IMG/VR virus record: IMGVR_UViG_2654587994_000003
Coordinates: 44,557-108,556 of that record
Strand: one strand, 5' to 3'
Origin: a virus
Taxonomy: Duplodnaviria > Caudoviricetes
Length of the DNA: 64,000 bases
Below are positions 2,878 through 63,781 of this stretch, piece after piece. The notes beneath the pieces were generated by a model. It did no database searches and was not told the origin of the DNA. It worked only from the letters and a program-made list of their open reading frames with translations. Position 1 is the stretch's first letter; the number at the start of each line of letters is the position of its first letter. The position numbers and the translations under genes were made by a program.

Positions 2878-4131
2878 TCACGCCACCGCCCTCGCCGGCT
2901 CATTGTCATTGGCCGCCGCATATCGCCCCGCGACCATCTCCGGACGCAACGTGGCGCGGGCAACTTCGCCGAAGCGGCGAGAATACGTGATAACTTTGGC
3001 AGACCGGCCCGACAGCCATCCGCCGCCAGCAGCGTATGCGTCAGGCGCGGCAAGCGTTTCGTGGCGCTCGACATACATCAGCGCCGACTTGCGGCCCTCA
3101 TCGCTGTGCAGGTGCCCGACATGCGCGAAGGCGTACTTCGATGCGCCGAACATTTCGCGGAACATGCCTGCCAACGTCGCATCGACCTGGGCCACGCCAC
3201 GCTTATGGCCGTGGTGATAGAACAGCGCTGTGTCGCCCCACTTGTAGGCGTAATAAAGCATAGGGCTGGTATCGACCGACACGCGCGGCTCGTTCTCGTA
3301 GATCGTCGCCAACAGCTCGCGAACCCATACGGACGAGGCCGGGTCATGGTTGCCCGAAGCCATGACGACGTGAACGTGCTTGTGCTTTTGCAACAGCATA
3401 TCAACGACGCGACGCAGAGTGCGAATAACGACGCGGACCACCTTATGCAGGCGGGAATCGGCGTCGAGAACGTGCTTATGCGCAGGCGTCACGCTCTCAA
3501 GAGCGTCATGGTGCAAGAGGTCGCCGAGCTGCGCGAGAACAGCTGTGTGCGCCTGCGGAGCGCCAGCCACAGCGGCGGCAAACCAATCCAGCAGCAACTG
3601 TTCGGCCAGCCTTAGATCGTAGTCGGCGCCCGTTTCCTCGCGATGGGCCAGCATGCCAAAATGGCTGTCGGTCACAACGAACTGGTTGAGGAGGTCTTCT
3701 TCGATGTGCTGCGGCGCAGGCATTATCGTGATGCGAGGCAGATTTTCCTTGAGGCCGTCGACAACGGCGCGGAACGCGGCCAACTGCCCTTCGGCATCCA
3801 CCGCCGTCTTCTGCCACTGCTGGATAACGCGCCCCTCAGCATCAACGAGGGCAGACACACCTTTGACGACGTGGCCAGTCGGCACCGCGAACTTCTCGCC
3901 CCGTTCCGGCGTCTGCTGGATGAACGTGCCGCTCGGAGTGTTGCTGATACGGCTTATGCGAAAGCCAGGAAGGACAGGCTCCGTGCCAAGAAGGCCAGCT
4001 TCGGCGGCGCGTTTGATGCTCTCGGCAAGAGCGGACTTGCCGATGCCAAGCACGGCGGCAGCCTTCACGAGCGTGCCGTGCTCTTTGTAGGCATCGGCTC
4101 TCCGGCGTAGTTCTTCTATGGGTAGAGGCAT
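2878..4131 (-). CDS. Calcineurin-like metallophosphoesterase with N-terminal HTH
   Basis: TDSHFG, GDLLH, GNHD, HHGH, GHLH motifs; start set at ATG 4131 behind GAGGAG. Confidence 0.8.
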   Translation of the reverse strand: MPLPIEELRRRADAYKEHGTLVKAAAVLGIGKSALAESIKRAAEAGLLGTEPVLPGFRISRISNTPSGTFIQQTPERGEKFAVPTGHVVKGVSALVDAEGRVIQQWQKTAVDAEGQLAAFRAVVDGLKENLPRITIMPAPQHIEEDLLNQFVVTDSHFGMLAHREETGADYDLRLAEQLLLDWFAAAVAGAPQAHTAVLAQLGDLLHHDALESVTPAHKHVLDADSRLHKVVRVVIRTLRRVVDMLLQKHKHVHVVMASGNHDPASSVWVRELLATIYENEPRVSVDTSPMLYYAYKWGDTALFYHHGHKRGVAQVDATLAGMFREMFGASKYAFAHVGHLHSDEGRKSALMYVERHETLAAPDAYAAGGGWLSGRSAKVITYSRRFGEVARATLRPEMVAGRYAAANDNEPARAVA

Positions 4132-4183
4132 GCAGTCTCCTCGATGTGGTGGTGAAGGCCGCTTGGTGGGCGGCCTGATTATT

Positions 4184-35179: not shown

Positions 35180-35256
<77 letters not shown>

Positions 35257-35388: not shown

Positions 35389-36333
35389 CTATGCTGCGCG
35401 GTCACGGAAACGGCTGAGTGCCAACTCTGCTAACCTTGCCTCGCGTTTATCGATCTCCTGCCACCTAATGCTCACAGTGCCTATTGCCATGCCAACCAAT
35501 GCGCGACCAGCAACAGCTGGCTTCAAGACCTCACCCCTGCGCTTTCCTATTTCGGAGTAGCTCTGGCCGCCCAACACCGCATCCTCGAAAGGTTCGACCA
35601 GCGGTCCTAGTGACGACCGAAGCTCCGCCAGGATCGGTTTGGCGTCGATATATTCATTCAGGATTTCATCGGTGATCTTCACGTGTAAGCTTTCCGTCTT
35701 GATCACACTGCCTGAAGCCACGTTGTCGTTGGCTGCGACCACAGTCCTCCGTGGCGGTATCGAATGCGATCCCTTGCTCTTCTTGACCTTCGTAGAGATT
35801 TTGATCTCGCCACTCGGCATTTCCTTCCAGTCGGACGCGGCGGCTCGGTCAATGTCCGATTCTGGCGTAAGGCGTTTGGTTTCCCTGACCACCTCCCCTC
35901 CGTCAGCCTTGCTGTAGTCCAACCCTTTCAGCGGCTCAGCCTCACAAAGCGCCACAAGCCGGCGATATCGAAGGACGACAGCTACAAGATCCTCACGCTC
36001 ATCACGGCGAAGCGCCTCAAGCAACGGAAAGTCCTCGCCGCGGCTCTGAACACAAGAGGGATCACCAATCGACTGCCGCTTCACTATCGCCCTCCGAACC
36101 TTCGCCATTTTCCTCGCCTCGTCAGCCGCTTTGGCTTTTGCTCGTTCTCTGCCTGCCGCCCTCTCCTCTGCAGTCTGCGGGATTTTGAGAACGTCTCTTG
36201 TTTTGGTTTCCTCGATTGGCTCCCACTTTCCATCCACCTTACGGAAGCGAGTGTTGGTCCTGTATGGATGCGGCTGGTCGCCGGTGAAGGCTACCCTGCC
36301 AGTGGCGTCGATGATCTGGTCTTCCTCGTTCAT
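35389..36333 (-). CDS. Hypothetical protein, possible late-transcription regulator
   Basis: Q-like position before tRNA and packaging genes; C-terminal HTH-like GQSYSEIG. Confidence 0.6.
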   Translation of the reverse strand: MNEEDQIIDATGRVAFTGDQPHPYRTNTRFRKVDGKWEPIEETKTRDVLKIPQTAEERAAGRERAKAKAADEARKMAKVRRAIVKRQSIGDPSCVQSRGEDFPLLEALRRDEREDLVAVVLRYRRLVALCEAEPLKGLDYSKADGGEVVRETKRLTPESDIDRAAASDWKEMPSGEIKISTKVKKSKGSHSIPPRRTVVAANDNVASGSVIKTESLHVKITDEILNEYIDAKPILAELRSSLGPLVEPFEDAVLGGQSYSEIGKRRGEVLKPAVAGRALVGMAIGTVSIRWQEIDKREARLAELALSRFRDRAA

Positions 36334-36370
36334 TGCTGTCTCCCCTGTGGTGCTCTTACTGCTGCTGCGC

Positions 36371-36844
36371 TTACGTTGGATGATTGTCGTTATCGGCCAG
36401 CCATCCTTTGACGAGTGCCACTGCCTTGTCGGCCGCTTCTGTCGTGGATGTGAACCGCACCACTTCCACTGGGTGCCCTAGCCGCGCCAGCGACGCATGC
36501 CGCTCAACCTGAGCCGGAGACAGGCGGCCTTTGCCGACTTTGTTCTCGATCATCCGCAGGGTGCCGCCCTTGAGGTAGATCCGCAGGTCAGCTTCTCCCG
36601 GCGTCATGCCAGTTGCGATTGCGTCAGCCTGGGCCCGTGGCCCGCGCTTCGCGCTGTTCATGTCGCCTGCCAGCAGGAACTGGCGGCCGTACTCCGGCAG
36701 CGACCGCAGGGCGCGAACCTGGGCCGCCTGCCCTTCACTTTCCTTGATGGGTGCGTCTGCGACAGTGACCTTGCCTTTTGGCGAAGTACGGATGACGACG
36801 CGCTTGCCATTGATGCGGGTGGTTTGGCTTGTGGCTCTGCCCAT
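36371..36844 (-). CDS. VRR-NUC nuclease
   Basis: GMTPGEADL..IENK..GRLSPAQ. Confidence 0.82.
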   Translation of the reverse strand: MGRATSQTTRINGKRVVIRTSPKGKVTVADAPIKESEGQAAQVRALRSLPEYGRQFLLAGDMNSAKRGPRAQADAIATGMTPGEADLRIYLKGGTLRMIENKVGKGRLSPAQVERHASLARLGHPVEVVRFTSTTEAADKAVALVKGWLADNDNHPT

Positions 36845-36948
36845 GGGCGTCTCCTCGTGGTGCGGTGTCGTGGTGGCGACACACTTACTTTCCGAGAGAC
36901 GAGCGAAAACGGGTAGTCGAATTTGAAAATATTTTTGGGTGAGCATCA

Positions 36949-43568: not shown

Positions 43569-44623
43569 GCTGCCACCTTGGCAACAGCATGATTATCGTT
43601 GGCGGCAGAGAACAGATCGGCCACCGGCTGCTCTTTCGTGCCAAGCGACGCGATGTTCTTCACTGCCTGACGGAAGTATGAAGGCTTGAGCTCGAAGCCG
43701 ACGCCCTTGCGGCCCATCTCGACGGCTGAATAAACCTCGCTGCCAATCCCGAGGAACGGCGTAAGCACTGTCTCACCGGGCAGGCTCCACAGATCAATGC
43801 AACGTTCGATCACGTCCAGCTGCAAAGGCGAGATATGCTGTTCGTCTTGCTCATCTCGGGCGGATCGGTATTGCAGTGTGCGTGTTTGGCGAATGTCGCT
43901 CCAAACCGGCGATGCGTATCGCTGCCAGACGAATACGGAGCGCCACTGCTCGAAGCTCCAGGGCGTGCGACCATCGGCAATTGTTTCTGCGGCGTGACGG
44001 TCATAGGCCTCGCGGCTGATGTCGAGACTTTCGTCGCCCACCCACATATCGAACATGCCATCGACCGGTTCAGAGTTTTCGCCCGGCTTTCGGAACGAGA
44101 CGATGTAGTCGGCAAGCCCCTGCCCGCTGATGCAGCTGTCCTTCGTGATCTGCTTGTGCAGCAGGCGAATGGATTTGGTGCGCTGCTGGGCAACTACCGG
44201 GTCTTTCCAGATGCAGACTTCGGAATGAAAGATCCAGCCGGCGTCCTCATAAGCACGGATGATCTCACCGCGGAAATCGCGCATGCCGATAAAGCCGTTG
44301 CGTCTCTTGCTCGTCGGCAGCTGCATGCAGTGAACGCTATGAATGCGTCCCGGTTTTGTGACGCGCAACAGTTCTTGGATAAGAAACGCGTAATGCTCCC
44401 AGAATGCGCCGCCCTCATTGTTGCTGATGTCGCGGTCAAAGCTCGAAAACTTGTAGAGGCCTTCGAACGGTGGAGAGTGGATGCCGAAATGCACGCTGTC
44501 ACCAGGGATAGCGCGAATGAGCTCACACGAGTCACCTTCGTAAATGGCGTAGTTGTCGGTGATGACCTGGTTCACGGCGTTGATGTCGGCGGTCAAGGCC
44601 GCAGTATTCTGTGCGTTCGTCAT
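43565..44623 (-). CDS. N4-cytosine/N6-adenine DNA methyltransferase (beta class)
   Basis: SPPF motif IV precedes TPFLGIGS motif I. Confidence 0.88.
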   Translation of the reverse strand: MTNAQNTAALTADINAVNQVITDNYAIYEGDSCELIRAIPGDSVHFGIHSPPFEGLYKFSSFDRDISNNEGGAFWEHYAFLIQELLRVTKPGRIHSVHCMQLPTSKRRNGFIGMRDFRGEIIRAYEDAGWIFHSEVCIWKDPVVAQQRTKSIRLLHKQITKDSCISGQGLADYIVSFRKPGENSEPVDGMFDMWVGDESLDISREAYDRHAAETIADGRTPWSFEQWRSVFVWQRYASPVWSDIRQTRTLQYRSARDEQDEQHISPLQLDVIERCIDLWSLPGETVLTPFLGIGSEVYSAVEMGRKGVGFELKPSYFRQAVKNIASLGTKEQPVADLFSAANDNHAVAKVAA

Positions 44624-46032
44624 TATGCGGCACCTCCTAGCCATGATGGGATTTGCATCGGGATTTTCGGGTCGTAGCTAGCCTTCTCACGCGCCTGCGC
44701 ATTGATCGCCTGCTTGGTGATATTGGCTGTGTGGAGCACCATCGCTGCGGCCATGCGGTCGGCGTCGGCCTCCTTGCGCTTAAGGTTGGCAACCACAGCG
44801 CCTTCGGTCTCGGCGGCGATAAAGTGAGCTGTGACCTCTTTCTGCTGCCCAAACCGGTAGAAGCGGCGAACCGCCTGATGGATCTGCTCGAAGCTATCGT
44901 TGAGACCAACAAATCCAGTGTCTGCACAGTGCTGCCAGTTCATGCCGAAGCCAGCGATCGAGGGCTTGGTTACGAGCACGCGAATCCGGCCTTCGCTGAA
45001 GTCGATGAGCTTGCGCTCCTTCACATCCTCTTTATCCGAACCGCGCACTTCGACCGCGCCGGGGATGGCCTTGGTCAGAGCCTCGCTCTCGGCGTTGAGA
45101 TTGCACCACCACACGAAAGGCCTGTCCTTCGGCGTCATCGCGGCAGCGAAGGCTACGCGATCATCCACACTGTCACGACGCGCCTTGATGCGCTCTTGGA
45201 GCGTCGATGCACGGCTGCCCACGAGATCACCGACAGCAACGGGAGCTGTCACCGTGTGGTGAATTTGATGCAGCGCCGGCAGCAAATAGGCGCCATCGTC
45301 GTATCCAAGATCGGAAGGCTTGCGAAGCATGACTGCCCACGACGCCATCCAGCGCCAGAAGTCGTTTTCGGCGTGACCTTTGAGCCGCCACTTCTGCGTT
45401 TCCCCGCCGTCGTGAGTAAAGAAGGTCGCTAGCATGTCGGAGTAGGACATGATGCCGAGAAATTCAGCGTGGTTGCCAAGCTCCATAAAATCGTTCGGTG
45501 CAGGCGTAGCAGTAGCAGCCAGCCGGAACGGTATGCCGTGGCACGCCTCGACTAGCTCGTTGCGATAATGGCCAGTCTCGGATTTCAGAATGCTGCTCTC
45601 GTCGAGAATGACGCCAGAGAACTGCGACAGGTCGAAAGCATCAATCTTCTGATAGTTCGTGACGTTAATGCCTGAGCCGATGTCTGACTGTGATCGCACG
45701 TGTCTGGCGGGGATGCCGAACTTCTCAGCCTCGCGCACCATCTGCGCCGCGACTGCCAGAGGCGCGAAATGTAGGACATCGCCCTGTGTCGACGCACTGA
45801 CCGCCTGCCCCCACGCAAGCTCCATGAAGCTCTTGCCGAGGCCAGTGCCGGCGAAGAGCGCAGCGCGGCCACGCTTGAGAGCCCAGGTCACGATGTCGCG
45901 CTGGAACGGGAATAGCACCGATGGAAGATCTGGAATCTCGGTTAGACCCGTCGGCGGGTCTAGAATGGCTTTTCTAGCCAAGAACGCAGCATAGGCGTTC
46001 GCTTGCGCACTGAGCGCAACATTCATGTTCAT
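44623..46032 (-). CDS. SNF2-like helicase
   Basis: GTGLGKS, ILDESS, ATATP, QAVRRFYRFGQ. Confidence 0.88.
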   Translation of the reverse strand: MNMNVALSAQANAYAAFLARKAILDPPTGLTEIPDLPSVLFPFQRDIVTWALKRGRAALFAGTGLGKSFMELAWGQAVSASTQGDVLHFAPLAVAAQMVREAEKFGIPARHVRSQSDIGSGINVTNYQKIDAFDLSQFSGVILDESSILKSETGHYRNELVEACHGIPFRLAATATPAPNDFMELGNHAEFLGIMSYSDMLATFFTHDGGETQKWRLKGHAENDFWRWMASWAVMLRKPSDLGYDDGAYLLPALHQIHHTVTAPVAVGDLVGSRASTLQERIKARRDSVDDRVAFAAAMTPKDRPFVWWCNLNAESEALTKAIPGAVEVRGSDKEDVKERKLIDFSEGRIRVLVTKPSIAGFGMNWQHCADTGFVGLNDSFEQIHQAVRRFYRFGQQKEVTAHFIAAETEGAVVANLKRKEADADRMAAAMVLHTANITKQAINAQAREKASYDPKIPMQIPSWLGGAA

Positions 46033-46112
46033 ATTGTCTCCTCAGACTGTGGTGTTCCCGCCGAAGCGGAAGCCGCGTTGGTGGCGCGGCGGGTGATGTG
46101 GTAGTGTTGCCG

Positions 46113-46886: not shown

Positions 46887-47414
46887 TCACGCCACCCTCA
46901 CCGACAGCTGCTCACCCGCCTCGCCCATCTTTGCGCCGCGCACCTTCTTGCCAGCCTGCAACGCCTCCTTGATGGCGGTCTTGTCGGGCGATGTCGAAAC
47001 GCGCACGTAAGCCTTTGGCAACGCGGCTTCGTCGATGATCTCAACCGATGCAGCCTTCTTGCCGATGGATATCGTCGCCTCGGCCAGCGGCACGCGCGGC
47101 ACGCCGGCAGCCTTCAGCAATTTTAACATCAGGCTTCGCATGGCCTCCTTGCGTCGCTCTGCGCGCGACTTGCGCGCTTGCAGATCGGAAATGCGGAGCG
47201 CAACTGACTTTGCCAGGCTGTCGGCGTCGCGCTCGCCGTTGACGAGGCGCGTCAGGACGGCGTGGAAGTTGGTCTCTCCTTCCAGCATGTCTGCGCGCAG
47301 TTCTTCGTCTGTCTCAAGCTCCGGATAAGCGGCCAGCATGTCGGCGAAAAGCGCTTCGAGGTTGGCGACGTCGGCGGCCAAATAGTTGTCGTTGGCGGAT
47401 CTTCTCTCGCTCAT
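46887..47414 (-). CDS. Siphovirus Gp157-family protein
   Basis: Coiled coil, then IIDEAALP..PDKTAIKEAL..G..V.GA. Confidence 0.82.
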   Translation of the reverse strand: MSERRSANDNYLAADVANLEALFADMLAAYPELETDEELRADMLEGETNFHAVLTRLVNGERDADSLAKSVALRISDLQARKSRAERRKEAMRSLMLKLLKAAGVPRVPLAEATISIGKKAASVEIIDEAALPKAYVRVSTSPDKTAIKEALQAGKKVRGAKMGEAGEQLSVRVA

Positions 47415-47461
47415 TTGTGTCTCCTCAATGTGGTGACGCCATTGGTGTGGCGTAGAGTTTG

Positions 47462-47493
47462 AAGCTATACTGTTTTTACAAATTTGTCAAGAT
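47462..47493 (-). promoter_or_regulatory. Repeated phage promoter/operator, copy 2
   Basis: Identical to 4930-4961. Confidence 0.75.
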
Positions 47494-49823: not shown

Positions 49824-50374
49824 ACGAAATTCCAGACCTTGAGATAAACGATTGGATTGCAGGGTTATCTGCGCTCGCCGCTATGCTCGCGGCTGCTTTT
49901 GCTTTCTCGTCGGCCCGCCAAGCCAAAAGACAAGCGGACGCGGTTCTCGGAGACGTAGAGCCTGTATTCAGCGCCTATCAGCTACCAGACGATGGGAAAA
50001 ACTATCGCCACAGGGTCGCCATCGAGATAGTCAACCACAATCGGCTACCGCTCTATGTCCAAAGCATCAGGTTGGAGTACCCTGACTGGGTGCTTATTCA
50101 CCGTGGAGCGGAAGAGGTTCGCGATCTTGTTGCCGCACTTTACGACGTAGTCATCGAGAAAAAGCGTGAGCACGTATTTGACGTTCCTTTCCGTCTCGCT
50201 GGGCGCTTCTCGAGTGATATGCCTGCAGTATCCACAAGCGTTTTCAATGTGAGATTTCTCGACCAGAACCAGCAGGGCGGTTTTGTACTAGGCTTCATCG
50301 TCCATTATCGCATGCATGGATCGAAGCGGGTTCGAGTTGCGTTTGCCTCGACAGGATTCGACGTTTTGGACTAA
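49763..50374 (+). CDS. Membrane-anchored moron
   Basis: TM segment followed by ARQAKRQAD; true start probably downstream of 49823. Confidence 0.55.
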   Translation: MTNSRKRRFLLLLGSGAVGAYEIPDLEINDWIAGLSALAAMLAAAFAFSSARQAKRQADAVLGDVEPVFSAYQLPDDGKNYRHRVAIEIVNHNRLPLYVQSIRLEYPDWVLIHRGAEEVRDLVAALYDVVIEKKREHVFDVPFRLAGRFSSDMPAVSTSVFNVRFLDQNQQGGFVLGFIVHYRMHGSKRVRVAFASTGFDVLD

Positions 50375-50907
50375 CCAGCCTCCCGCAGCAGCCCAAGCAC
50401 CCTCGCCCGCTCCTTGATGACGATCTGGCGAACGCGCTCTTTGGTGAGGCCGTGGTCATTGCCGATGGCCTCCAGCGTCTCGCCCATCGCCCTGCGCATC
50501 AGCATCGTGCCATTCCGGCCTTCCAGCAGGGAGACAACGCGCGATAAGTCGGTGCCCTCCTCCTGGTGCGGATCAGCAGAACCCGGCAGCTCTTCGAACG
50601 CGGAGAGACTGCAGACCTCAGCGGACCGCGACTTGGTGGAATTTGTGCGAACGAATTCCTGCGCCGTACCCCGAACACAGAGGACGGCCCATGTCCAAAA
50701 GGTCTCAAGCCGGCATTCCCGATGACGGCGCAACATGACGACCATCGCCGACTGAAAAAGTTCGTCGGCCGCGTCTTCGTTCTTGGTGATCTTTCGCGCC
50801 AGTCTTCGTAAAGCCGGCTCGTAGGCCAGAAGCTTGCGGTCGAACTCGGGACTGCGCAGATTGTTATCATTGGCAGCGACAAGCGGCGTGCGTGCAACAA
50901 GCGGCAT
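50371..50907 (-). CDS. ECF-like RNA polymerase sigma factor
   Basis: LRRLARKI..AADELFQ..WA (region 2); ETLEAIG..LTKERVRQI (region 4). Confidence 0.8.
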   Translation of the reverse strand: MPLVARTPLVAANDNNLRSPEFDRKLLAYEPALRRLARKITKNEDAADELFQSAMVVMLRRHRECRLETFWTWAVLCVRGTAQEFVRTNSTKSRSAEVCSLSAFEELPGSADPHQEEGTDLSRVVSLLEGRNGTMLMRRAMGETLEAIGNDHGLTKERVRQIVIKERARVLGLLREAG

Positions 50908-50927
50908 GGTGGTCTCCTCATAAGGTG

Positions 50928-51857
50928 TTAGGCGTTGGTGGCGCCATCTATCCATGTCGTGCCGTCTCGCAGCACATAAGTGATTGTCTCAGCTTCCTCA
51001 TCGCAATCCGTTTGCGTGCCGGGGACGAGGGCCGGGATCGTCAGATGCGTGGGGCAGCCTTCCTTTTGCTCGTCGAATGAAATCGGCTTTGCCCAGCGTG
51101 CGCAGGACCAATGACCGCCGCCGCCCATTTCCGGCGACGAGTGAATGCAGGATCGACAGGTGACGCGTGGCCATGCACTCTCCTTGCATACAGGCTTGTG
51201 CTTGCAGAAGGTGCATTCGAACCAGTCCGGCGCATCGTTGATGCGCGACGGGGGCTCTGGCGAATTGATGATCCGTTCTAGCCGCGCCAGCAGACGCAGA
51301 CAGAACTCCGGATCGTATTCGATGCGCTCGGCATAAAGCGTGTCATCATCCTTGCAGCTGACGAGGTAGAGGCAGCGCGATAGACCGAACGCGTGCATTC
51401 CAAGCTGGCACTGTCCGTAGTGGAGCGGTTTCGCTTCCTTGCAGCCGTCCTTCACAATCAGTTTCATGCCCTTGGCGTTGCTCGACTTGAATTCGAGCAG
51501 GTGCTCTGTCTTCGGAGCCTCTACGACACCCATTGCCTTGCCGTCGCACTTTCCGCGCACGTGCCCCTGCACCAGCCTGATCTTGTCTTGCTGGCCGTAG
51601 ACATCGACGCCGATGCGCTCAAGGTCTTCAACCAAGCGCGATTCCTCAAGATTGCCGGTTTCGAACAGACGCAGCTGGCGGCCGTGATGCTTTTCCAGTG
51701 GTGAGGCCCATCGGAAGGCATACCAGAGAGCGCGATCGCATGGATTGTTGGCCTCACCAACGGATATGCCGAGGCTATCCCATGACGAGGCTGCGGCTTC
51801 GTAGGCGGCGTAGATGGCACGGACTGTGCTGGATTCTGGCTTGGGTAGTGGGGCCAT
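50928..51857 (-). CDS. PD-(D/E)XK (Cas4-like) exonuclease
   Basis: CDRALWY, GKCDG, LEFKS, QCQ, C..C..C cluster. Confidence 0.82.
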   Translation of the reverse strand: MAPLPKPESSTVRAIYAAYEAAASSWDSLGISVGEANNPCDRALWYAFRWASPLEKHHGRQLRLFETGNLEESRLVEDLERIGVDVYGQQDKIRLVQGHVRGKCDGKAMGVVEAPKTEHLLEFKSSNAKGMKLIVKDGCKEAKPLHYGQCQLGMHAFGLSRCLYLVSCKDDDTLYAERIEYDPEFCLRLLARLERIINSPEPPSRINDAPDWFECTFCKHKPVCKESAWPRVTCRSCIHSSPEMGGGGHWSCARWAKPISFDEQKEGCPTHLTIPALVPGTQTDCDEEAETITYVLRDGTTWIDGATNA

Positions 51858-51897: not shown

Positions 51898-52953
51898 TCA
51901 GCCGACCCTCATCGGCATGCAAACGAGCGTCAGCCCCTCGAAGCCGTCGGACGTGATCAGCCCCGGCGTGCCGCCATCCTGCAAGGCCAGCTTGACCGGA
52001 CCAGACGGCAAAACGTTCAGAACGTCGCGGACGTAGGCAGCGTTGAATCCGATATCCATCGGCTCGCCGCTGTATTCTGCCTCGACTTCGTCATTTGCCG
52101 ACGCCTCGCCAGCCGCGACAGCAAGCGCGATGCTGCCTGGCGCGATGCTGAACTTCACGGCACGGCCGCGCTCAGACGACACGGTCGAAACGCGGTCGGA
52201 AGCCTTCATCAGCGCGTCACGATCAACGGTGATGACACGTTCGTTGCTCGTAGGAATGACGCGCTCGTAGTCAGGAAATGTGCCGTCGATCAGCTTCGAC
52301 GTGATGCGCACGTCGTCCGACACGATGCGGATTTTCTGCTGGCTGACGGCCACCTGCACCTTGCCCTTCGGAAGCAGGCCGACGGTCTTACGTGGCACGA
52401 TGACGCCATCGAAGGTTGGCAACTCAGGGCCGATGTTACGTCCGAGACGATGGCCGTCGGTGGCAACTGCTTCCGACTTGCTGCCGCCCTTGAAGAACAC
52501 GCCGTTCAGATAATAGCGCGTTTCCTCTGTCGAGATCGCGAACGACACCGGTGCAAACAGTGCGGCCAGATCGATCCCGAATTCAGCGTCGAACTTGTCT
52601 TCGCCAAGCGTCGGGAAGTCTTCTGCCGACAGCGTCGAAAGCGAAAAACGCGAGCGGCCGGACTTCACCGAAAGTTTGTCACCCTCCAGAGACATAGTAA
52701 TGTCGCCGGTCGCCTTGCGGGCGATGTCGTTGAGCAGCTTGGCGCTAACGCAGATGTTGCCGGGCTTGGCGACCTCCGCCGGCACGCCTGCAGTGGCGCT
52801 GATGTCGAGGTCGGTTGCAGTGATCGCGAGGCCATCGCCTGCGGCTGCAAGCTGGACACTCGACAGGATGGGGATGGTGGATCTTGCTTCGACGACCTTA
52901 GTCGTGGCGGCAAGCGCGCGCGTCAGGTCTTCCTTGTGAATGACAAGGTGCAT
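51898..52953 (-). CDS. dnaN: DNA polymerase III beta sliding clamp
   Basis: TIPILS, ATDLD, EETRYYLNG, ATDGHRL, LIDGTFPDY, MPMR. Confidence 0.92.
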   Translation of the reverse strand: MHLVIHKEDLTRALAATTKVVEARSTIPILSSVQLAAAGDGLAITATDLDISATAGVPAEVAKPGNICVSAKLLNDIARKATGDITMSLEGDKLSVKSGRSRFSLSTLSAEDFPTLGEDKFDAEFGIDLAALFAPVSFAISTEETRYYLNGVFFKGGSKSEAVATDGHRLGRNIGPELPTFDGVIVPRKTVGLLPKGKVQVAVSQQKIRIVSDDVRITSKLIDGTFPDYERVIPTSNERVITVDRDALMKASDRVSTVSSERGRAVKFSIAPGSIALAVAAGEASANDEVEAEYSGEPMDIGFNAAYVRDVLNVLPSGPVKLALQDGGTPGLITSDGFEGLTLVCMPMRVG

Positions 52954-53010
52954 GGGTGTCTCCTCGGTGATGTGTGGTGTGCCTGCCGTGGTGAGCGGCA
53001 GGCAGGTGAG

Positions 53011-53904: not shown

Positions 53905-54483
53905 TTACTTGCTGCCCCAAGGCCGACGCGTCGTGCCGGCGGCCGCAGCGGCAGGCTTGTTGTCATTGCTGGCGGCTGTGCGGCGGTTGTCGTTGGCTGC
54001 GGCTGGCGCAGCATCGACCTTCGGCTCAGGCAGGTTGCCCTCATCGGGGTAATAGTACTTCTTCACCTCGTTGCGGGCCGCGTACTTCGGCGTGCCGTCG
54101 GCGTTCTTCTCCTTGCTATCCTTCCCCATGCCGATGCGCGCCATGAAGGAGATGAAGTGGAGCTCGTCGGAGTCTTCTGGCGCCTCGTTCAAGCCGAGTG
54201 AGCGCAGGAGGCAGGCAAATTGGCGCTGACCGATTTCCTGGGTCTGAGGGTTTGGATGCTGCAGATTGTAGTTGTTGAAGACCTTGCGGCCTTTGAGTTC
54301 CTCTGGAGCAAGGACGTCGATGGTCACGCTCAGATTGATGGCGTGGTCGCGGGTGTCCTTGTTCTTTTCCTTGATCTCGGAGGCGCTGATTTCCAGCTGG
54401 TAGTCGCCGTTCGGCAGGTTGGTGAAATCGCGCTGTTGGGTGTTCTCTTCGGTCGCTTCAACTCTGACGCCAATCTTGGCCAT
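53905..54483 (-). CDS. DUF669-family ssDNA-binding protein
   Basis: LPNGDY..GRKVF..NL..N.VK..PW; follows Sak4. Confidence 0.75.
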   Translation of the reverse strand: MAKIGVRVEATEENTQQRDFTNLPNGDYQLEISASEIKEKNKDTRDHAINLSVTIDVLAPEELKGRKVFNNYNLQHPNPQTQEIGQRQFACLLRSLGLNEAPEDSDELHFISFMARIGMGKDSKEKNADGTPKYAARNEVKKYYYPDEGNLPEPKVDAAPAAANDNRRTAASNDNKPAAAAAGTTRRPWGSK

Positions 54484-54513
54484 GCGTAGTCTCCTTCAGT
54501 GGTGGTGTGGTGG

Positions 54514-55732: not shown

Positions 55733-55875
55733 GCCAGAGCTCCCAAGAAATAGAGAACGCCAACAGAAGGCAGGACAGCCAGCCATAGTACAAGTAGCGC
55801 AAAAGCAGTTAAGGTTAGCGCAGCCTCAGAGAAGCCAGACCAGAAGGCTGGCCAGTTCGTTGCGGGGCGCGTCAT
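55729..55875 (-). CDS. Small membrane peptide (below cutoff)
   Basis: Manual translation MTRPATNWPAFW..ALLVLWLAVLP..; ATGA coupling on both sides. Confidence 0.5.
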   Translation of the reverse strand: MTRPATNWPAFWSGFSEAALTLTAFALLVLWLAVLPSVGVLYFLGALA

Positions 55876-56183
55876 GCCGCAATCCTCACCTCGTCAGCCA
55901 AAGCCCTCCGACGAGCCGCGCTGTGCATGTAGATCGGCAGGCGGTGTTCGCTCACCTTTGCATTGGCTGCATCGCGTGCCGCCCGCTTGCGATCGCCCCT
56001 CGTTGTTCCATCAGCAAACTTGCGCACCTCTTTTTGGAAGTTGCTGAAGCCATCGCCGCCGGTGAGGACGGACATCAGGTGCATGCGACGGTCGAAATGA
56101 GCGGCGTCGGTGGAAGGCATGCCGAGCTTGGTGTCGTTCTCATGCTCACGCTGCGCAAGCTTATCGAATACGTTCTTAGACAT
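55872..56183 (-). CDS. Hypothetical protein
   Basis: 103 aa, GAGGAG RBS. Confidence 0.65.
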   Translation of the reverse strand: MSKNVFDKLAQREHENDTKLGMPSTDAAHFDRRMHLMSVLTGGDGFSNFQKEVRKFADGTTRGDRKRAARDAANAKVSEHRLPIYMHSAARRRALADEVRIAA

Positions 56184-56243
56184 ATTAGTCTCCTCAATGA
56201 TGTGGTGGAGCGCGGCTGGTTGGTGGCCAGCCGCTAGCGCTGG

Positions 56244-57137: not shown

Positions 57138-57415
57138 GCTGCTCCTTCCGTTGTTGTCTCGGCGGTCATCGCGCGCCGTTGTGTGAAGTCGACCTTGACG
57201 ACGTTGGTGTCGTCATCCTCTTTTGCTGGCGGCTCGCCCTCCGGATCGTGTTCGATCTCGAAGCCGTGCCACCAGATCGTCGATGCGCCGTCAGCAAGTC
57301 GCACCTGGTACTCGCTGCCCCAGTTGCGATCGCCGATGACGACGCCAGTGAGATGAGGGTTTTGTCTGTTGCGGACCGGATCGCCGAAATTGAAAAATTC
57401 GCAATCGCAGCTCAT
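57134..57415 (-). CDS. Hypothetical SH3-like protein
   Basis: FNFGDPV..TGVVIG..YQVRL. Confidence 0.6.
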   Translation of the reverse strand: MSCDCEFFNFGDPVRNRQNPHLTGVVIGDRNWGSEYQVRLADGASTIWWHGFEIEHDPEGEPPAKEDDDTNVVKVDFTQRRAMTAETTTEGAA

Positions 57416-57762
57416 GCCGCCACCCGCTCACTACGCAGTGCGTAGTCGTTGACCGCCTGCCCCGCCGCCAGATCTTCAGCATTGTCATTTGCCGCGGCAA
57501 GAACGCGCGGGAGCGAAACCGGCATAAGGCCGGAAAGCGTGGAGCAACCGCCGTTGTGCGGCGCCAGGTGCGTCGTGCGGTCGGGATTGTTGTCGTTGGC
57601 GGCAATGATGGCGCGCTGCTTGTGCAGGCCGTATGTGCGCCGAAGCCGCTGGTATGCTGCCATTGGCTTGACGTTGTATCTGGCGGCGATATCTGCGACG
57701 CTCTCACCGTTTTCACGGCGCGCGTGCATATCCGCCAGCATTGTGCTGGTGATAAGCGTCAT
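57412..57762 (-). CDS. Small HTH protein (cro-like position)
   Basis: GESVADIAARYNV..AYQRL; first gene after promoter copy 3. Confidence 0.7.
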   Translation of the reverse strand: MTLITSTMLADMHARRENGESVADIAARYNVKPMAAYQRLRRTYGLHKQRAIIAANDNNPDRTTHLAPHNGGCSTLSGLMPVSLPRVLAAANDNAEDLAAGQAVNDYALRSERVAA

Positions 57763-57815
57763 GTCGTCTCCTCTGGGTGGTGGCCGCTTGTGGTTGACAA
57801 AGCGACAGGGTTATG

Positions 57816-57847
57816 AAACTAAACTATTTTTACAAATTTGTCAAGAT
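57816..57847 (-). promoter_or_regulatory. Repeated phage promoter/operator, copy 3
   Basis: TTGACA-17-TAGTTT with the same ACAAATTTGT core. Confidence 0.7.
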
Positions 57848-57864
57848 TTCACGAAGGTGGATGC

Positions 57865-58467
57865 ATGCCTGAAGTTAAGTCGCGCCTCCTGCAGTCGATA
57901 CTGAAAGAACAGAAGCGGAGAGCCGTAAAGGATCGCGCTGTCTACGAAGAGTTAGGCGTGCCTCAGCAGACCTTCAGCACCTGGAAAGCTGGCGTCATAC
58001 CGAGACCAAGACAATTCCCGGCGATTGCCGCCTTCCTCGGTGTCTCCGAAGAAGATGTGGCGGAGATGGCTCGCGAGGCGGCCGAAACAGCCCCGTCCAT
58101 CACGCCGATTACGGTTGCCCGTACCTACGGCAAGATTTCCGACCGCAAGGCTGGCAAATTCAAATTCGAACCAATCAACGATGGCCGCAAACGTATTCCT
58201 GAAGGCAGGTACGCGATCATCATAGACACGAAAGTGATGGAGCCTGTCTTCCACGTTGGCGTGAAAGCTTGGCTTGACCCTTCCCGCTGGCCCGCCGCCG
58301 GTGACGACGTTCTGGCCCATTCTGGCGGATTCGCCTGGATTGGGCGCTTCGAAGGAATGAGCAACGGCGCCGTTCAGCTTGGCCACTACGATGGATCGCA
58401 GCTTGAAGTGAAGAACGTGGAAGCTGTCCATGTCATCGTCCTTTCGGAGCGGGTGGTTACAGCATAG
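57865..58467 (+). CDS. XRE-HTH repressor with degenerate S24-like C-terminus
   Basis: ELGVPQQTFSTWKAG..P; VMEPVFHVG..WLDP. Confidence 0.75.
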   Translation: MPEVKSRLLQSILKEQKRRAVKDRAVYEELGVPQQTFSTWKAGVIPRPRQFPAIAAFLGVSEEDVAEMAREAAETAPSITPITVARTYGKISDRKAGKFKFEPINDGRKRIPEGRYAIIIDTKVMEPVFHVGVKAWLDPSRWPAAGDDVLAHSGGFAWIGRFEGMSNGAVQLGHYDGSQLEVKNVEAVHVIVLSERVVTA

Positions 58468-58491
58468 CGAGGTGGTGGCTCGGAATGCTGC

Positions 58492-58520
58492 TTGACAATT
58501 CCTACAAATTTGTGTAGGAG
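58492..58520 (+). promoter_or_regulatory. Promoter/operator variant in front of the candidate sRNA
   Basis: TTGACA-17-TAGGAG containing ACAAATTTGT within CCTACA..TGTAGG. Confidence 0.6.
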
Positions 58521-58524
58521 ATTG

Positions 58525-58656
58525 ATCGTCCGCTGTGGTGGCGGATATGGAATACGCGCTTTGATCCCGCCTTACGGCGAAGGTCTCCTCGGCGTGTTAG
58601 TACGGAGAAGGGGCGGAGTTACGGGTGGTGCCGGCTCATTACGCCCCTTTTCGTTT
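58525..58656 (+). ncRNA. Candidate trans-acting antisense sRNA
   Basis: Three stem-loops exposing TGTGGTG, GTCTCCTC and GTGGTG; last stem AAGGGGCG..CGCCCCTT followed by T-run. Confidence 0.6.
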
Positions 58657-58741
58657 TCTGCTGCATGCACGACAACGCCGGCAGAGCTTCATGCTCCACC
58701 GGCGCTAAGTTTTCGAAGTCATTGTTTGCGGTCTTTCTCAT
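58619..58741 (-). CDS. 40 aa peptide
   Basis: GGGGAGAC RBS, MRKTANNDFENL..; 3' end overlaps the sRNA terminator antisense. Confidence 0.45.
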   Translation of the reverse strand: MRKTANNDFENLAPVEHEALPALSCMQQKTKRGVMSRHHP

Positions 58742-58797
58742 AGTCGTCTCCCCTTCTGGCATTATTGGTTTTGTTATCGCCAGTTGGTTGCTGGCGT

Positions 58798-58941
58798 TTA
58801 CGGCGGCCCGGTCACTGGCCGCCATCTTCTTCTGCGATCGGGAGCTTCATGCTCCCATCTTCTTCTCGCCGTCATGGCGGTCATGCCGATCAGCGCTTGG
58901 GTCGTCGATCGTCTTCTTTCGCAATCCTTAAACATGCGCAT
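58798..58941 (-). other. AGA-run leader peptide / structured leader RNA
   Basis: 47 codons with three AGA runs interleaved with hairpins; AAGGGA RBS. Confidence 0.45.
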
Positions 58942-59014
58942 TCCCTTTCATGCTGCAGGTTCGTCTTGGGGTCTGTTGCCCTGTCGGCTTCTTGTTTGGC
59001 CGCTGTTGATTTTG

Positions 59015-59056
59015 GTTTTACCCGTATTTGGGTTGGTCGTCAACCCGAATATGCAT
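59015..59056 (-). promoter_or_regulatory. pR-like promoter with two repressor operators
   Basis: TTGACG-17-TAAAAC; operators ACCCGTATTTGGGT (59020) and ACCCGAATATGCAT (59043). Confidence 0.7.
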
Positions 59057-59090
59057 TTTACTTGCATTTATTTATGGGTTATCTGACATC

Positions 59091-59750
59091 ATGGATACTG
59101 TGGCCCTCACTCGAATGCTGATCTCACACTACGGCAATGAAGAAGCGTTGGCCGCCCTAGCCGGCGTGGGGCAGTCATCGGTAAACAGGTGGGCGAACGG
59201 CGGAAACATTCGGGGTAACCACCTTCTTCGCTTGATGGAACTAGCGCGTAGCGTTCCGTCTGCCGCGGACATCATTGCTGACGTTACTGACGTCGCCTCA
59301 CATAATGAAGGCTTCACGCCGACGGTCGTACCTGGTCGAGAACTAGTAGGCGAGAAAAATCTCCCTGTTTTCGCAGCCGCGATGGGCGGAGAGGGCCATC
59401 AGATCGTGACATTTGATGCGATCGATTATGTGAAACGACCATCCATCCTAGAGAACGTCAAGGATGCCTACGGCGTATACATCGTCGGAGAATCGATGAC
59501 TCCCGCCTTCGAACCGGGAGACATGGCGCTCGTGCATCCACACCTACCTCCGGCGCGCGACAAGAACGTTGTGCTTTACCATGTCCCTCCATTTGGGCAC
59601 GGAGAAGCAGAAGCGATCGTCAAGCGCCTGGTCAGGTGGAGCGACCGAGACTGGCACCTAAAACAGTACAATCCGAGCATCGAATTCACCGAATCTCGCG
59701 CGGACTGGAAGTGGTGCCATCGTATCGTAGGCAAGTATGAGGCTCGATAA
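59091..59750 (+). CDS. CI-like repressor (HTH plus S24 peptidase)
   Basis: LAALAGVGQSSVNRW; GESMTP and IVKRL catalytic Ser/Lys; no SD, possibly leaderless. Confidence 0.9.
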   Translation: MDTVALTRMLISHYGNEEALAALAGVGQSSVNRWANGGNIRGNHLLRLMELARSVPSAADIIADVTDVASHNEGFTPTVVPGRELVGEKNLPVFAAAMGGEGHQIVTFDAIDYVKRPSILENVKDAYGVYIVGESMTPAFEPGDMALVHPHLPPARDKNVVLYHVPPFGHGEAEAIVKRLVRWSDRDWHLKQYNPSIEFTESRADWKWCHRIVGKYEAR

Positions 59751-59760
59751 GCGGCATCCG

Positions 59761-59997
59761 TCACTCATAAGCAGGCAAATCCGCAATATGCTCTGGCACC
59801 TCACCGGCGCCAGCAACTAAAAAAAGCTCACTGGACGATGCGGCTATAGCGACTACGCAGACTTTCTCTGGGGAAATCCTGTCAACGATTTTCCTTGCGT
59901 GCGCGACTGAACCAACCTGCATTGGAGCATCCGGAGATACCCCTCCTCGCGTTGAACGCGTGAAACTCTGCACAATAAACACTTCGCTCAAATCCAT
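59761..59997 (-). CDS. Small LexA-boxed hypothetical protein
   Basis: 78 aa, GGAGG RBS, SOS box upstream. Confidence 0.65.
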   Translation of the reverse strand: MDLSEVFIVQSFTRSTRGGVSPDAPMQVGSVAHARKIVDRISPEKVCVVAIAASSSELFLVAGAGEVPEHIADLPAYE

Positions 59998-60941: not shown

Positions 60942-60973
60942 CCACCACCAAACACCACACCGAGGAGACAAAC

Positions 60974-61186
60974 ATGTCGAGAAGACGCGACACCACCTAT
61001 ACCCCTGCCCCATACGCCGGCGACGGACTTGAGGTCCTAGCCAACCTTTCATCCGTAAGCGCACCGACGGCCGTTCTGGTTGCTGTCGCCAAATGGCACG
61101 AGCGCAGGAAGGATGCCCGCAACCGCGTCATCGCCTCCAAGCTGCGTGAGCTCGTCGCGGCGAATGACAATGGGAGGAGAAGATGA
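60974..61186 (+). CDS. Hypothetical protein
   Basis: 70 aa, GAGGAG RBS. Confidence 0.65.
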   Translation: MSRRRDTTYTPAPYAGDGLEVLANLSSVSAPTAVLVAVAKWHERRKDARNRVIASKLRELVAANDNGRRR

Positions 61187-63520: not shown

Positions 63521-63680
63521 ATTCCGCGCTTGCCACGGCAGGTTGAATAGACCTATTCTCAAAATACAGTCAGACAAATGCAGAGCAGTTTGCAAACGAA
63601 ATGTAACGTATTGATTTTCGGCAGCAGATATTAGAAGCAGTTTGTTTTCAGCTTTTCACAATCATTACATAAAAACCTAG

Positions 63681-63725
63681 CTTCTAAGCAGTAGGTCGCA
63701 GGTTCGAGTCCTGCAGGGGTCGCCA
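63681..63725 (+). repeat. att core: 3' half of tRNA-Arg(TCT)
   Basis: Begins at anticodon loop CTTCTAA, has T-arm GCAGG-TTCGAGT-CCTGC and ends GCCA; no 5' half upstream. Confidence 0.85.
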
Positions 63726-63781
63726 CCGCTTTCTTGAATTCCCCACAAATGACTGGTTTGGGTTCGATCGCAGATACGGTT

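Follow-up and report, generated by a model that had tools for sequence, protein, structure and literature searches.

Herein, we describe a small RNA of about 130 nucleotides (nt), encoded on the plus strand at 58527-58656 of a 64,000-nt stretch of viral DNA (hereafter, the window), which is part of the provirus record IMGVR_UViG_2654587994_000003. Three findings were obtained by computational analysis. First, the RNA almost certainly belongs to a real and conserved family of phage small RNAs, as judged from the comparison of its homologues. Second, its exposed motifs complement a signature that recurs in the leaders of many genes of the same phage, and pairing between the two is considered likely. 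Third, we lean towards the full explanation, in which the RNA would pair with these leaders and thereby repress the early and replication gene set.

The RNA is matched by a covariance model of the family, R1, at 58527-58659 with 168.2 bits; its 5' end was placed from the promoter and its 3' end from the U-tract. Three domains are predicted. Domain P1 (58528-58546) is a hairpin of six base pairs with the loop UGUGGUG (58534-58540). Domain P2 (58551-58598) consists of a closing helix round an inner hairpin and carries an anti-Shine-Dalgarno (anti-SD) element, GUCUCCUC, at 58583-58590, where the DNA reads GTCTCCTC. After a conserved single-stranded linker, UAGUACGGA (UAGUAGGAA in other classes of homologue), at 58599-58607, domain P3 (58608-58657) forms a long terminator-type stem, which includes the mini-hairpin CGG-[GUGGUG]-CCG (58622-58633, loop 58625-58630) and ends in UUUUCGUUUU; in the DNA, the GC-rich terminal hairpin with GTGGTG at 58625-58630 is followed by TTTTCGTTTT. 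The promoter TTGACA-17-TAGGAG, the hairpin TCCGC-[TGTGGTG]-GCGGA (58529-58545), the central element at 58583-58590 and the GTGGTG loop with its T-run had been named in an initial annotation made from the letters alone, and all of them were found in the sequence where it had placed them. The three-domain fold proposed there was also the minimum free energy fold of the single sequence, in which, within GGUCUCCUC, GGUC is paired and UCCUC is open. The energy of this fold is unexceptional (z = -1.76, with 7 of 200 shuffles folding as well), so that the window alone would not prove an RNA; the comparison of homologues does. The energies required to open the motifs are 0.14 kcal/mol for the P1 loop, 2.51 for UCUCCUC and 0.04 for the P3 loop, with a median of 5.65 for the 6-mers of this RNA. 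At the gathering threshold, Rfam matched only a transfer RNA (tRNA) in the whole window, and at an expectation value (E) of up to 10 the region 58400-58800 gave three chance-level matches to unrelated families; no family was matched in this search, which the initial annotation had advised and which included the C4 and alpha-r families.

Homologues were collected by BLAST of a phage collection, by a scan of viral contigs with a 16-mer of the terminal loop, and with two further patterns, the last of which (the third pattern) fixes neither loop. BLAST gave one short match, which lies between genes of Milano, a virulent phage of Agrobacterium, and a search of a plasmid collection left the RNA gene unmatched. 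The 16-mer found 55 loci, comprising 30 with the whole element and 25 chance occurrences in unrelated genes. The second, bipartite pattern, run on contigs of one genome per species, found 18 loci, 14 of them true, in Agrobacterium tumefaciens, rosae, burrii and pusense, six Brucella/Ochrobactrum species, two Shinella species, one unclassified Rhizobiales isolate and one metagenome-assembled genome; the other four, all in Actinobacteria, lacked the fold, were unmatched by R1 and were discarded. All 16 loci of the third pattern were true and 13 of them new. The copy of phage 7-7-1 is located where the record of this phage annotates only a stem-loop. The copies were divided into class A (like the window, from Agrobacterium), class B (Brucella/Ochrobactrum proviruses), class C (Shinella-type and metagenomic phages) and class D (permuted order, with GUCUCCUC first), together with a single divergent copy (L073) and the copies of Milano and 7-7-1, two virulent Schmittlotzvirus phages. 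When folded individually, copies of all classes gave the same three domains. A GC-rich stem with a U-tract ends the copies of classes A, B and E and that of Milano; class C has the stem with only weak U-runs. The permuted order is seen in L026 (4354-4437) and L042 (8980-9069), where GUCUCCUC is followed by the UGUGGUG hairpin and then by the terminal domain, so that the elements are collinear with their complements in CACCAC...GAGGAGAC, GAGGAGAC being the extended Shine-Dalgarno (SD) element of the leaders described below. One Ochrobactrum genome (G008) carries two copies, one of class B and a second at C22:228035-228164, beside signature matches at C22:229605 and C22:275625.

Model R1 was built from 11 class A sequences and L073 with a hand-annotated structure, and the copies were aligned to it with Infernal. 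Among 59 sources, R1 found 46 full-length copies (E up to 0.003), and three further partial matches were due to chance. In the resulting alignment (33 distinct rows, 930 pair cells), which was fitted to the model and hence leans to structure, 95.7% of the cells pair, and changes on both sides were observed in 29 of the 35 pairs, including 6/6 pairs of P1, 7/7 closing pairs of P2, and 8/8 outer and 3/3 inner pairs of P3. None of 500 shuffles reached any of five measures, and 3' partners that had been slid along the sequence paired at 40-46%. Covariation of the stems across relatives, which the initial annotation had asked for, was thus observed. Compensatory changes are also plain in the raw sequences, for example GUCCGC/GCGGAU versus GUCCGA/UCGGAU and GGGGCG/CGCCCC versus GCGAGC/GCUCGC, and in the class C insert a GNRA tetraloop is exchanged for a UUCG tetraloop. 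The P3 mini-stem is invariant in the R1 alignment and covaries in the later finds round a constant GUGGUG loop: CGG/CCG in 41 distinct copies, CGA/UCG in four, CAC/GUG in one, and CAG/CUG in one and in 7-7-1. The anti-SD element GUCUCCUC is present in 46 of 46 full-length R1 matches, a figure to be read with the fact that two of the three collection patterns required it, so that only the rows from the 16-mer scan test its conservation; 7-7-1 reads GACUCCUC. A plain MAFFT alignment of all classes misaligned the stems, and RNAalifold recovered only six pairs from it. In the helices, 66 G·U cells stand against 10 A·C cells, and pairing is 95.7% on the plus strand versus 89.7% on the minus strand; therefore, the plus strand is the structured strand. 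This result, together with the promoter and U-tract on the plus strand, disfavours the alternative raised by the initial annotation, in which a minus-strand transcript would be a CsrB-like sponge.

The signature shared by the leaders has two parts. Across the window, 11 sites match CACCAC-N0-12-GGAGAC where 0.11 would be expected, a count reached in none of 100 shuffles; 10 of these sites lie on the minus strand, opposite the RNA gene and spread from 4 kb to 57.8 kb of the window, and one lies on the plus strand. The 8-mer GAGGAGAC occurs 12 times against 2.09 expected. Fourteen plausible genes start after [AG]GGAGAC at a spacing of 3-6 nt (7-8 nt at 54483 and 42059). An exact CACCAC stands just 5' in 10 of them and only a variant CA-rich element (CCACC or ACACC) in two, with neither at 889 and 42059; behind the eleventh match of the bipartite signature, at 31925, there is only a 33-codon frame. 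The figure of about 17 genes given in the initial annotation was therefore generous. The genes that bear the signature encode SSB-like, DNA polymerase clamp, helicase, primase/polymerase, Gam-like, exonuclease, pyrophosphatase and sigma factor proteins. In 170 distinct GGAG leaders with CACCA upstream, taken from loci that bear the small RNA, the two bases before GGAG are G in 82% and A in 95%, and those after it A in 86% and C in 73%, whereas in 313 GGAG leaders of such loci without CACCA the bases after it are A in 28% and C in 19%. In the stretch from the CACCA element to the SD, G and U are also strikingly rare in the leaders. The ribosomal anti-SD core, CCUCC, would not pair with the last two bases (AC) of the extended leader SD, with which an invariant G and U of the RNA would pair.

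The signature-bearing leaders of the minus strand are distributed as follows. The first early promoter (CTTGACAAATTTGTAAAAA...) and its leader occupy 57763-57842, with the hairpin GCUUG-[UCAACCA]-CAAGC followed by CCACCACCC-AG-AGGAGAC and an ATG at 57762. The signature CACCACATCATTGAGGAGAC at 56188-56207 precedes the gene 55872-56183; further signatures stand at 54489-54512 before the SSB-like gene (53905-54483) and at 52958-52979 before the gene for the DNA polymerase processivity factor (51898-52953). The leader at 50912-50935, with GAGGAGAC, ACACC and a hairpin with a CCACCAA loop, belongs to a sigma-factor-like gene (50371-50907). The second early promoter and its leader (47419-47492; hairpin loop CACCAA, then CACCACATTGAGGAGAC) precede the Gam-like gene (46887-47414), and the helicase gene (44623-46032) has its signature at 46036-46054. 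Two signatures lie close together, at 36849-36862 before the gene 36371-36844 (phrog_824, with a weak endonuclease match) and at 36338-36352 (CACCACAGGGGAGAC) before the gene 35389-36333. The DNA repair exonuclease gene (2878-4131) follows a signature at 4135-4154, and the pyrophosphatase gene (2089-2517) follows a leader at 2522-2545 with GAGGAGAC, CCACCGCCAC and a hairpin with a CUACCAA loop. The sole signature of the plus strand, at 60953-60969, precedes a gene of 70 amino acids (60974-61186). A GC-rich hairpin with an ACCA-containing loop of 6-7 nt, of the form C(C/A)ACCAA, lies 5' of CACCAC in 11 of the 14 leaders folded; such hairpins stand 40-70 nt 5' of the starts at 2517, 4131, 36844, 46032, 47414, 50907, 52953, 56183, 57762, 58741 and 4848. 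They could kiss the loops of the RNA, end the upstream cistron or be protein sites.

The three exposed motifs of the RNA, UGUGGUG, GUCUCCUC and GUGGUG, complement CACCAC(A)...GAGGAGAC of the leaders, as the initial annotation had noticed. Among 77 gene models, reverse complements of the 6-mers of the RNA are found in 7-11 leaders only for the 6-mers at 58534-58536, 58583-58585 and 58624-58625, and the same 6-mers occur 0-3 times in gene interiors. A comparison of 7-mer complementarity with a Markov expectation over the whole window gave no readable signal, as GC-rich coding words dominate it. The occurrence of the signature across genomes points in the same direction. In two Agrobacterium genomes (G005 and G006), 7/7 and 12/12 signature matches fall within the one stretch of about 50 kb that holds the RNA gene, with none in the other 5 Mb or so. 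In 48 Agrobacterium genomes, R1 finds the RNA in seven; six of these have 7-14 signature matches clustered beside it, and the seventh has two, on the contig of the RNA itself. None of the 41 RNA-negative genomes reaches seven matches, the maximum being six. Small signature clusters without an R1 match were seen at G050:C22:419449-427545 and G020:C14:368778-368800. Filters were stricter in the genus-wide R1 search, and the scores of class C copies are low; these two clusters may be remnants, or a divergent copy of the RNA beside them may have escaped detection.

The strongest argument for direct RNA-RNA pairing is a matched change of loop and leader in one provirus, G056 (locus L034), in which the P1 loop reads GUGGUA instead of GUGGUG. 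UACCA is present in 13 of its 28 leaders versus 15 of 212 leaders in phages with the GUGGUG loop (Fisher 5e-07), and U precedes the SD-proximal ACCAC in 5 of 12 leaders versus 0 of 59 in the window, G057, G058 and G059 (Fisher 6e-05). CUACC-N-RGGAGA occurs 10 times on one strand of G056 versus 3, 1 and 0 times in three other class C and D records. Within leaders, TACCA and CACCA stand in a ratio of 0.62 in G056 and of 0.04-0.11 in four other phages. Elsewhere in the sequence the ratio is 0.29-0.35 for each of the five, and the shift is thus confined to the leaders. L098, probably a relative of G056, has the loop CUGGUAA and likewise UUACCA and CUACCA leaders. In other words, in a relative that keeps the leader motif a variant loop is accompanied by a changed leader, which bears out the expectation of the initial annotation that the loops be conserved where the motif is. 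The anti-SD element is too invariant for such a seed-target test, and covariation is seen for the P1 loop only.

The same leaders bear on a quite improbable alternative, in which the GUGGUG loops or the linkers (UAUGGAA and UAGUACGGA) would bind a phage or host protein, the RNA being a decoy, sponge or cofactor and the CA-rich leaders being translation enhancers or sites of a protein. Both linkers are conserved yet not complementary to the leaders, the stretch between CACCA and the SD is poor in G and U as expected of unstructured enhancers, and the family persists in genomes that lack the signature. However, no candidate protein travels with the RNA across the classes, and the matched change in G056, which RNA-RNA pairing predicts, is unexpected for one shared protein unless this protein has also changed. 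A possible binding of the UGGUG loops to the CACCA 3' end of tRNAs was considered as well and set aside.

The RNA gene is flanked by two repressor genes, an arrangement that marks the immunity region of a temperate phage (the copies of Milano and 7-7-1 are not so placed). A CI-type repressor gene (57865-58467, plus strand; phrog_4 'transcriptional repressor', E 4.2e-08, without a Pfam match at E 0.001) lies immediately 5' in the same orientation, and a second repressor gene (59091-59750) has a Peptidase_S24 domain and also matches phrog_4. The coding sequence of the same repressor C-terminus precedes the RNA gene in classes A, C and D. The putative promoter of the RNA (58492-58520, plus strand) consists of TTGACA at 58492-58497, a 17-nt spacer and TAGGAG at 58515-58520; it was not called by a promoter consensus scan of the window because TAGGAG is a poor -10 element. 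Classes A, B and C have TTGACA or a near match to it (ATTGACA, TTGACT) some 35-40 nt 5' of the first hairpin, with TTGCAA at this position in Milano and 7-7-1, and the class C promoter has the form of the early promoters. The only plus-strand open reading frame (ORF) across the region (58492-58743, 83 amino acids) has a TTG start inside the -35 hexamer; a peptide-coding reading was set aside on this ground, in agreement with the statement of the initial annotation that no convincing plus-strand ORF exists. Just after the stop codon of the first repressor gene, in its 3' untranslated region (UTR) and 5' of the -35 hexamer, the sequence contains a small hairpin, CGAG-[GTGGTGG]-CTCG (58468-58482, plus strand), whose loop reads TTGGTTG or TTGGTGG in other class A copies; TTGGTTG is the exact complement of CAACCAA leader loops. 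The hairpin GTGGTGG is possibly an extra anti-leader loop, present only on read-through transcripts of the repressor gene.

This arrangement raises the question whether the RNA is only a structured 3' UTR or attenuator of the repressor messenger RNA (mRNA), acting on its stability or on read-through to the second repressor gene at 59091 and having no function in trans. In classes A, C and D the RNA lies immediately behind the repressor gene and is read in the same direction, and no terminator-like site was seen between the repressor stop and 58656, either by eye or by a scan that also missed the terminator of the RNA itself. Against this stand the TTGACA-type hexamer (TTGCAA in Milano and 7-7-1), which is kept at a conserved distance also in copies without a preceding repressor gene, and the invariant loops on varying stems, which are not expected of a mere stabiliser; we regard a role limited to the 3' UTR as very improbable. 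Since no terminator was found before its own, the RNA is nevertheless probably also the 3' end of the repressor mRNA. It could therefore be made in the lysogen as the tail of this mRNA, which would favour immunity, and the gene layout would allow its processing from the repressor mRNA.

On the other side, a candidate convergent ORF of 40 codons (58619-58741, minus strand) overlaps the terminal hairpin by 38 nt at its 3' end; it has its own leader, with a CAACCAA-loop hairpin and GGGAGAC. A leftward unit (58619-58941, minus strand), with a promoter-like TTGACG-17-TAAAAC near 59030-59000 and an AGA-rich stretch, runs head-on into the RNA gene. Thus the RNA might instead be a cis-antisense or terminator element, which would end the repressor transcript and collide or pair with the leftward transcript (58741 to 58619 and beyond, fully complementary on read-through), the match to distant leaders being secondary. 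The overlap of the convergent transcript with the terminal hairpin fits this view, the weak U-tract on the minus side of the hairpin makes read-through plausible, and in class B the leader of the divergent gene must start inside or beside the RNA gene. However, the loops are constant although the neighbour changes from class to class (A, B and C) and again in the virulent phages; a cis element would have no need of three invariant exposed motifs, and the leader covariation in G056 would be left unexplained. We consider a cis-acting element improbable. Elsewhere in the window, a tRNA-Met gene lies inside the prophage (35180-35256, minus strand) and is the sole tRNA found by ARAGORN or Rfam; neither found a tRNA near 63631-63726, beside the integrase.

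The regulatory setting can be read from a palindrome, ACAAATTTGT, which occurs exactly four times in the window, in three early promoters and in the spacer of the RNA promoter (58504-58513); allowing one mismatch, five occurrences stand against 1.13 expected. The minus-strand promoters at 57842, 47490 and 4960 are near-identical, CTTGACAAATTTGTAAAAA(C/T)AGT(A/T)TAG, with an imperfect 16-base-pair palindrome over the -35 element, and they head the early-left operon, the Gam/helicase block and a block that ends in the exonuclease gene. Together they resemble a single regulon under repressor control. If ACAAATTTGT is a repressor operator, the promoter of the RNA would fire together with the early genes, which favours a delayed shut-off. 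A similar element was seen in the virulent phages: just 3' of the RNA in Milano (L001, 3060-3135) and 7-7-1 (L083, 850-880), a TTGAC promoter carries the palindrome ACAAAT-N-ATTTGT, close to ACAAATTTGT. This suggests that the whole module in the virulent phages may derive from a temperate immunity region.

Taken together, we propose that the RNA acts in trans as an antisense small RNA of about 130 nt within the immunity region, which could be transcribed from its own putative promoter, of repressor type. Two of its domains present GUGGUG-type loops, and the middle domain carries the anti-SD element GUCUCCUC. The target leader often has a hairpin with a C(C/A)ACCAA loop, followed by single-stranded CACCAC(A) and then by GAGGAGAC, 3-6 nt 5' of the start codon. 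The accessible GUGGUG loops would first contact the CACCA elements. Subsequently, GUCUCCUC would pair with the complete 8-mer GAGGAGAC, of which the ribosome would engage only about six bases. Ribosome binding would thereby be blocked across about a dozen early, replication and recombination genes at once, and the role of the RNA would be either the immunity of the lysogen or the shut-off of early genes after induction. The proposal of the initial annotation that one small RNA serves the whole early programme is, in this form, partly retained: a conserved plus-strand RNA, its complementarity to the leaders, a replication and recombination gene set, co-occurrence of RNA and signature, and covariation of the P1 loop with the leaders speak for it, and Milano, 7-7-1 and the Brucella/Ochrobactrum proviruses speak against a single universal role.

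Several observations weigh against repression of the phage's own leaders, in addition to the model-fitted alignment mentioned above. First, the signature is missing from some genomes that carry the RNA. Milano has no bipartite match, and its GAGGAGAC occurs only inside the RNA gene; 7-7-1 is without the bipartite signature, and its variant, GAGGAGTC, is found only inside the RNA gene; four class B Brucella/Ochrobactrum proviruses have 0-1 bipartite matches per record. In the sole class B record checked for the 8-mer (provirus G001), GAGGAGAC is absent outside the RNA gene. The complement of the first loop of Milano, TTACCAG, occurs 3 and 5 times on the two strands versus 4.2 expected per strand, and never at a start. 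Since these phages keep the loops without the signature, pairing with the phage's own leaders cannot be the only role of the family. Second, the Agrobacterium prophages are one related lineage, and the association of RNA and signature therefore shows linkage and not independent events. Third, the covariation of loop and leader is thin, coming from one lineage (G056 and probably its relative L098); the terminal loop of G056 is still GUGGUG and 13 of its 28 leaders still have CACCA, which fits both loops being in use. Fourth, access to GUCUCCUC is only moderate in class A (2.5 kcal/mol) and poor in class B (4.8-6.1). Fifth, duplex energies of three RNA segments against the 77 leaders did not separate motif leaders from others: 62 of the 77 pass -20 kcal/mol versus a mean of 55.7 with shuffled segments, in a crude comparison whose gene models caught only six motif leaders. 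Sixth, if the repressor binds ACAAATTTGT, the RNA's own promoter would be off in the lysogen. Finally, four runs labelled RNA cover 57400-59800 with single contigs of 2.4-16 kb, in runs whose contigs reach 143 kb; the contigs of 16-143 kb are identical to the window, and the end of one contig repeats 57819-57847, in the early-promoter region. With such long contigs the runs behave like DNA and are uninformative on transcription, ends and strand; the library seems to consist of genomic DNA from a near-identical strain.

The genomes without the signature lead to another explanation, namely that the main targets lie outside the phage's own genome, among host mRNAs or the transcripts of other phages; a prophage would turn the RNA against the early genes of incoming relatives that share the leader signature, a virulent phage would act on resident prophages, and pairing with own leaders would be secondary or a side effect. 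Consistent with this view, Milano, 7-7-1 and class B keep both GUGGUG-type loops, the anti-SD element and covarying stems without the signature in their own genomes, and the Agrobacterium signature is confined to prophages of the window type, so that a virulent phage would meet it only in lysogens. However, no host or foreign target has been identified: G005 and G006 have no bipartite site outside the prophage, and G007, which has class B only, has 0 sites. Moreover, the covariation in G056 links the RNA and the leaders of the same provirus, and in Milano AGGAGAU sites on the two genes next downstream of the RNA would allow a local target with one G·U pair. In class B, CCACC-type matches are seen only in the leader of the divergent neighbour. 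Both the AGGAGAU sites and these matches, which are too short to score, are possible local targets. We therefore regard mainly external targets as unlikely, and repression of the phage's own early and replication genes remains our preferred reading, although the copies in signature-less genomes may act on transcripts of the host or of other phages.

By analogy, the c4 RNA of P1 and P7 comes closest among known systems; its Rfam family, C4, we take to be RF01695. The c4 RNA acts on one downstream operon in the same transcription unit and is processed from a longer precursor. In the available part of a review, c4 is described as a structured immunity RNA of 77 nt, the loops of which bind the ant mRNA round its ribosome-binding site and block translation (PMC12197685). 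The present RNA is likewise a structured phage RNA of an immunity region with loops complementary to sequences at and beside the ribosome-binding site of its targets. In contrast to c4 as described there, it has about 130 nt and three pairing elements, and it has no Rfam C4 match even at E up to 10. Moreover, it matches about a dozen leaders over 57 kb, mostly on the opposite strand and through a shared signature, and not a single downstream gene; unlike the target of c4 in its own transcription unit, 10 of the 11 signature sites lie on the strand opposite the RNA gene.

Other systems share single features with the present RNA. The CI RNA of P4 and the CA RNA of N15 terminate transcription of a single early operon prematurely, acting through two sites. 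With these, the present RNA would share an immunity that is not only protein-based and short repeated sites on early transcripts, whereas here a protein repressor (phrog_4) is also present and the sites are at the individual ribosome-binding sites of many genes. In T4, the endoribonuclease RegB and the translational repressor RegA shut off many early genes through a feature of the ribosome-binding site; the likeness is in logic only, these being proteins without sequence relation to the present RNA. In the Rhizobiales, the chromosomal small RNAs AbcR1/2 and NfeR1 repress several mRNAs of host transport and metabolism through C/U-rich anti-SD loops and end in a terminator hairpin. The host clade, the anti-SD element and the terminator hairpin are thus the same, but the present RNA has a second, GUGGUG-type element and a phage context, and the Rfam models for these RNAs (presumably alpha-r14 and alpha-r15/AbcR) did not match it. 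To our knowledge, every phage antisense RNA described to date has a single gene or operon as its target. According to the available part of the review, the sar RNA of P22, the OOP RNA of lambda and STnc6030 of BTP1 tune the lysis-lysogeny decision or exclude superinfecting phages through one phage mRNA each (PMC12197685). In contrast to these RNAs, which that text places in cis, opposite a single target, the present RNA is encoded elsewhere and has complementarity to short motifs only. No phage antisense RNA with a phage-wide target set is listed in that part of the review. A literature search found no description of the RNA or of the leader signature, and the main text of the 7-7-1 genome paper contains the term 'small RNA' 0 times; its supplementary Table S2 of promoters and terminators, which may list flanking signals, lies outside this statement.

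If the proposal is true, one RNA that reads a shared ribosome-binding-site signature would constitute a post-transcriptional regulon inside a phage, and the GUGGUA loop with its UACCA leaders would be a natural specificity variant of it. The RNA may also explain how early genes are turned off in phages without an obvious Cro. The presence of the same RNA in virulent flagellotropic phages without the signature is a puzzle. We offer, as a doubtful but possible extension, that the leader signature is an address label read by one small RNA, by which all labelled genes could be silenced jointly and over whose key phages would compete. A prophage would thereby be immune, independently of protein, to incoming relatives with the same label on their genes; Milano and 7-7-1, being virulent, would possess the key but not the lock and use it to shut down resident prophages of this type; and a joint change of loop and label, like that of GUGGUA/UACCA, would let a lineage escape. 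Finally, a short portable leader tag with its matching RNA would be an orthogonal translation switch for the Rhizobiales.

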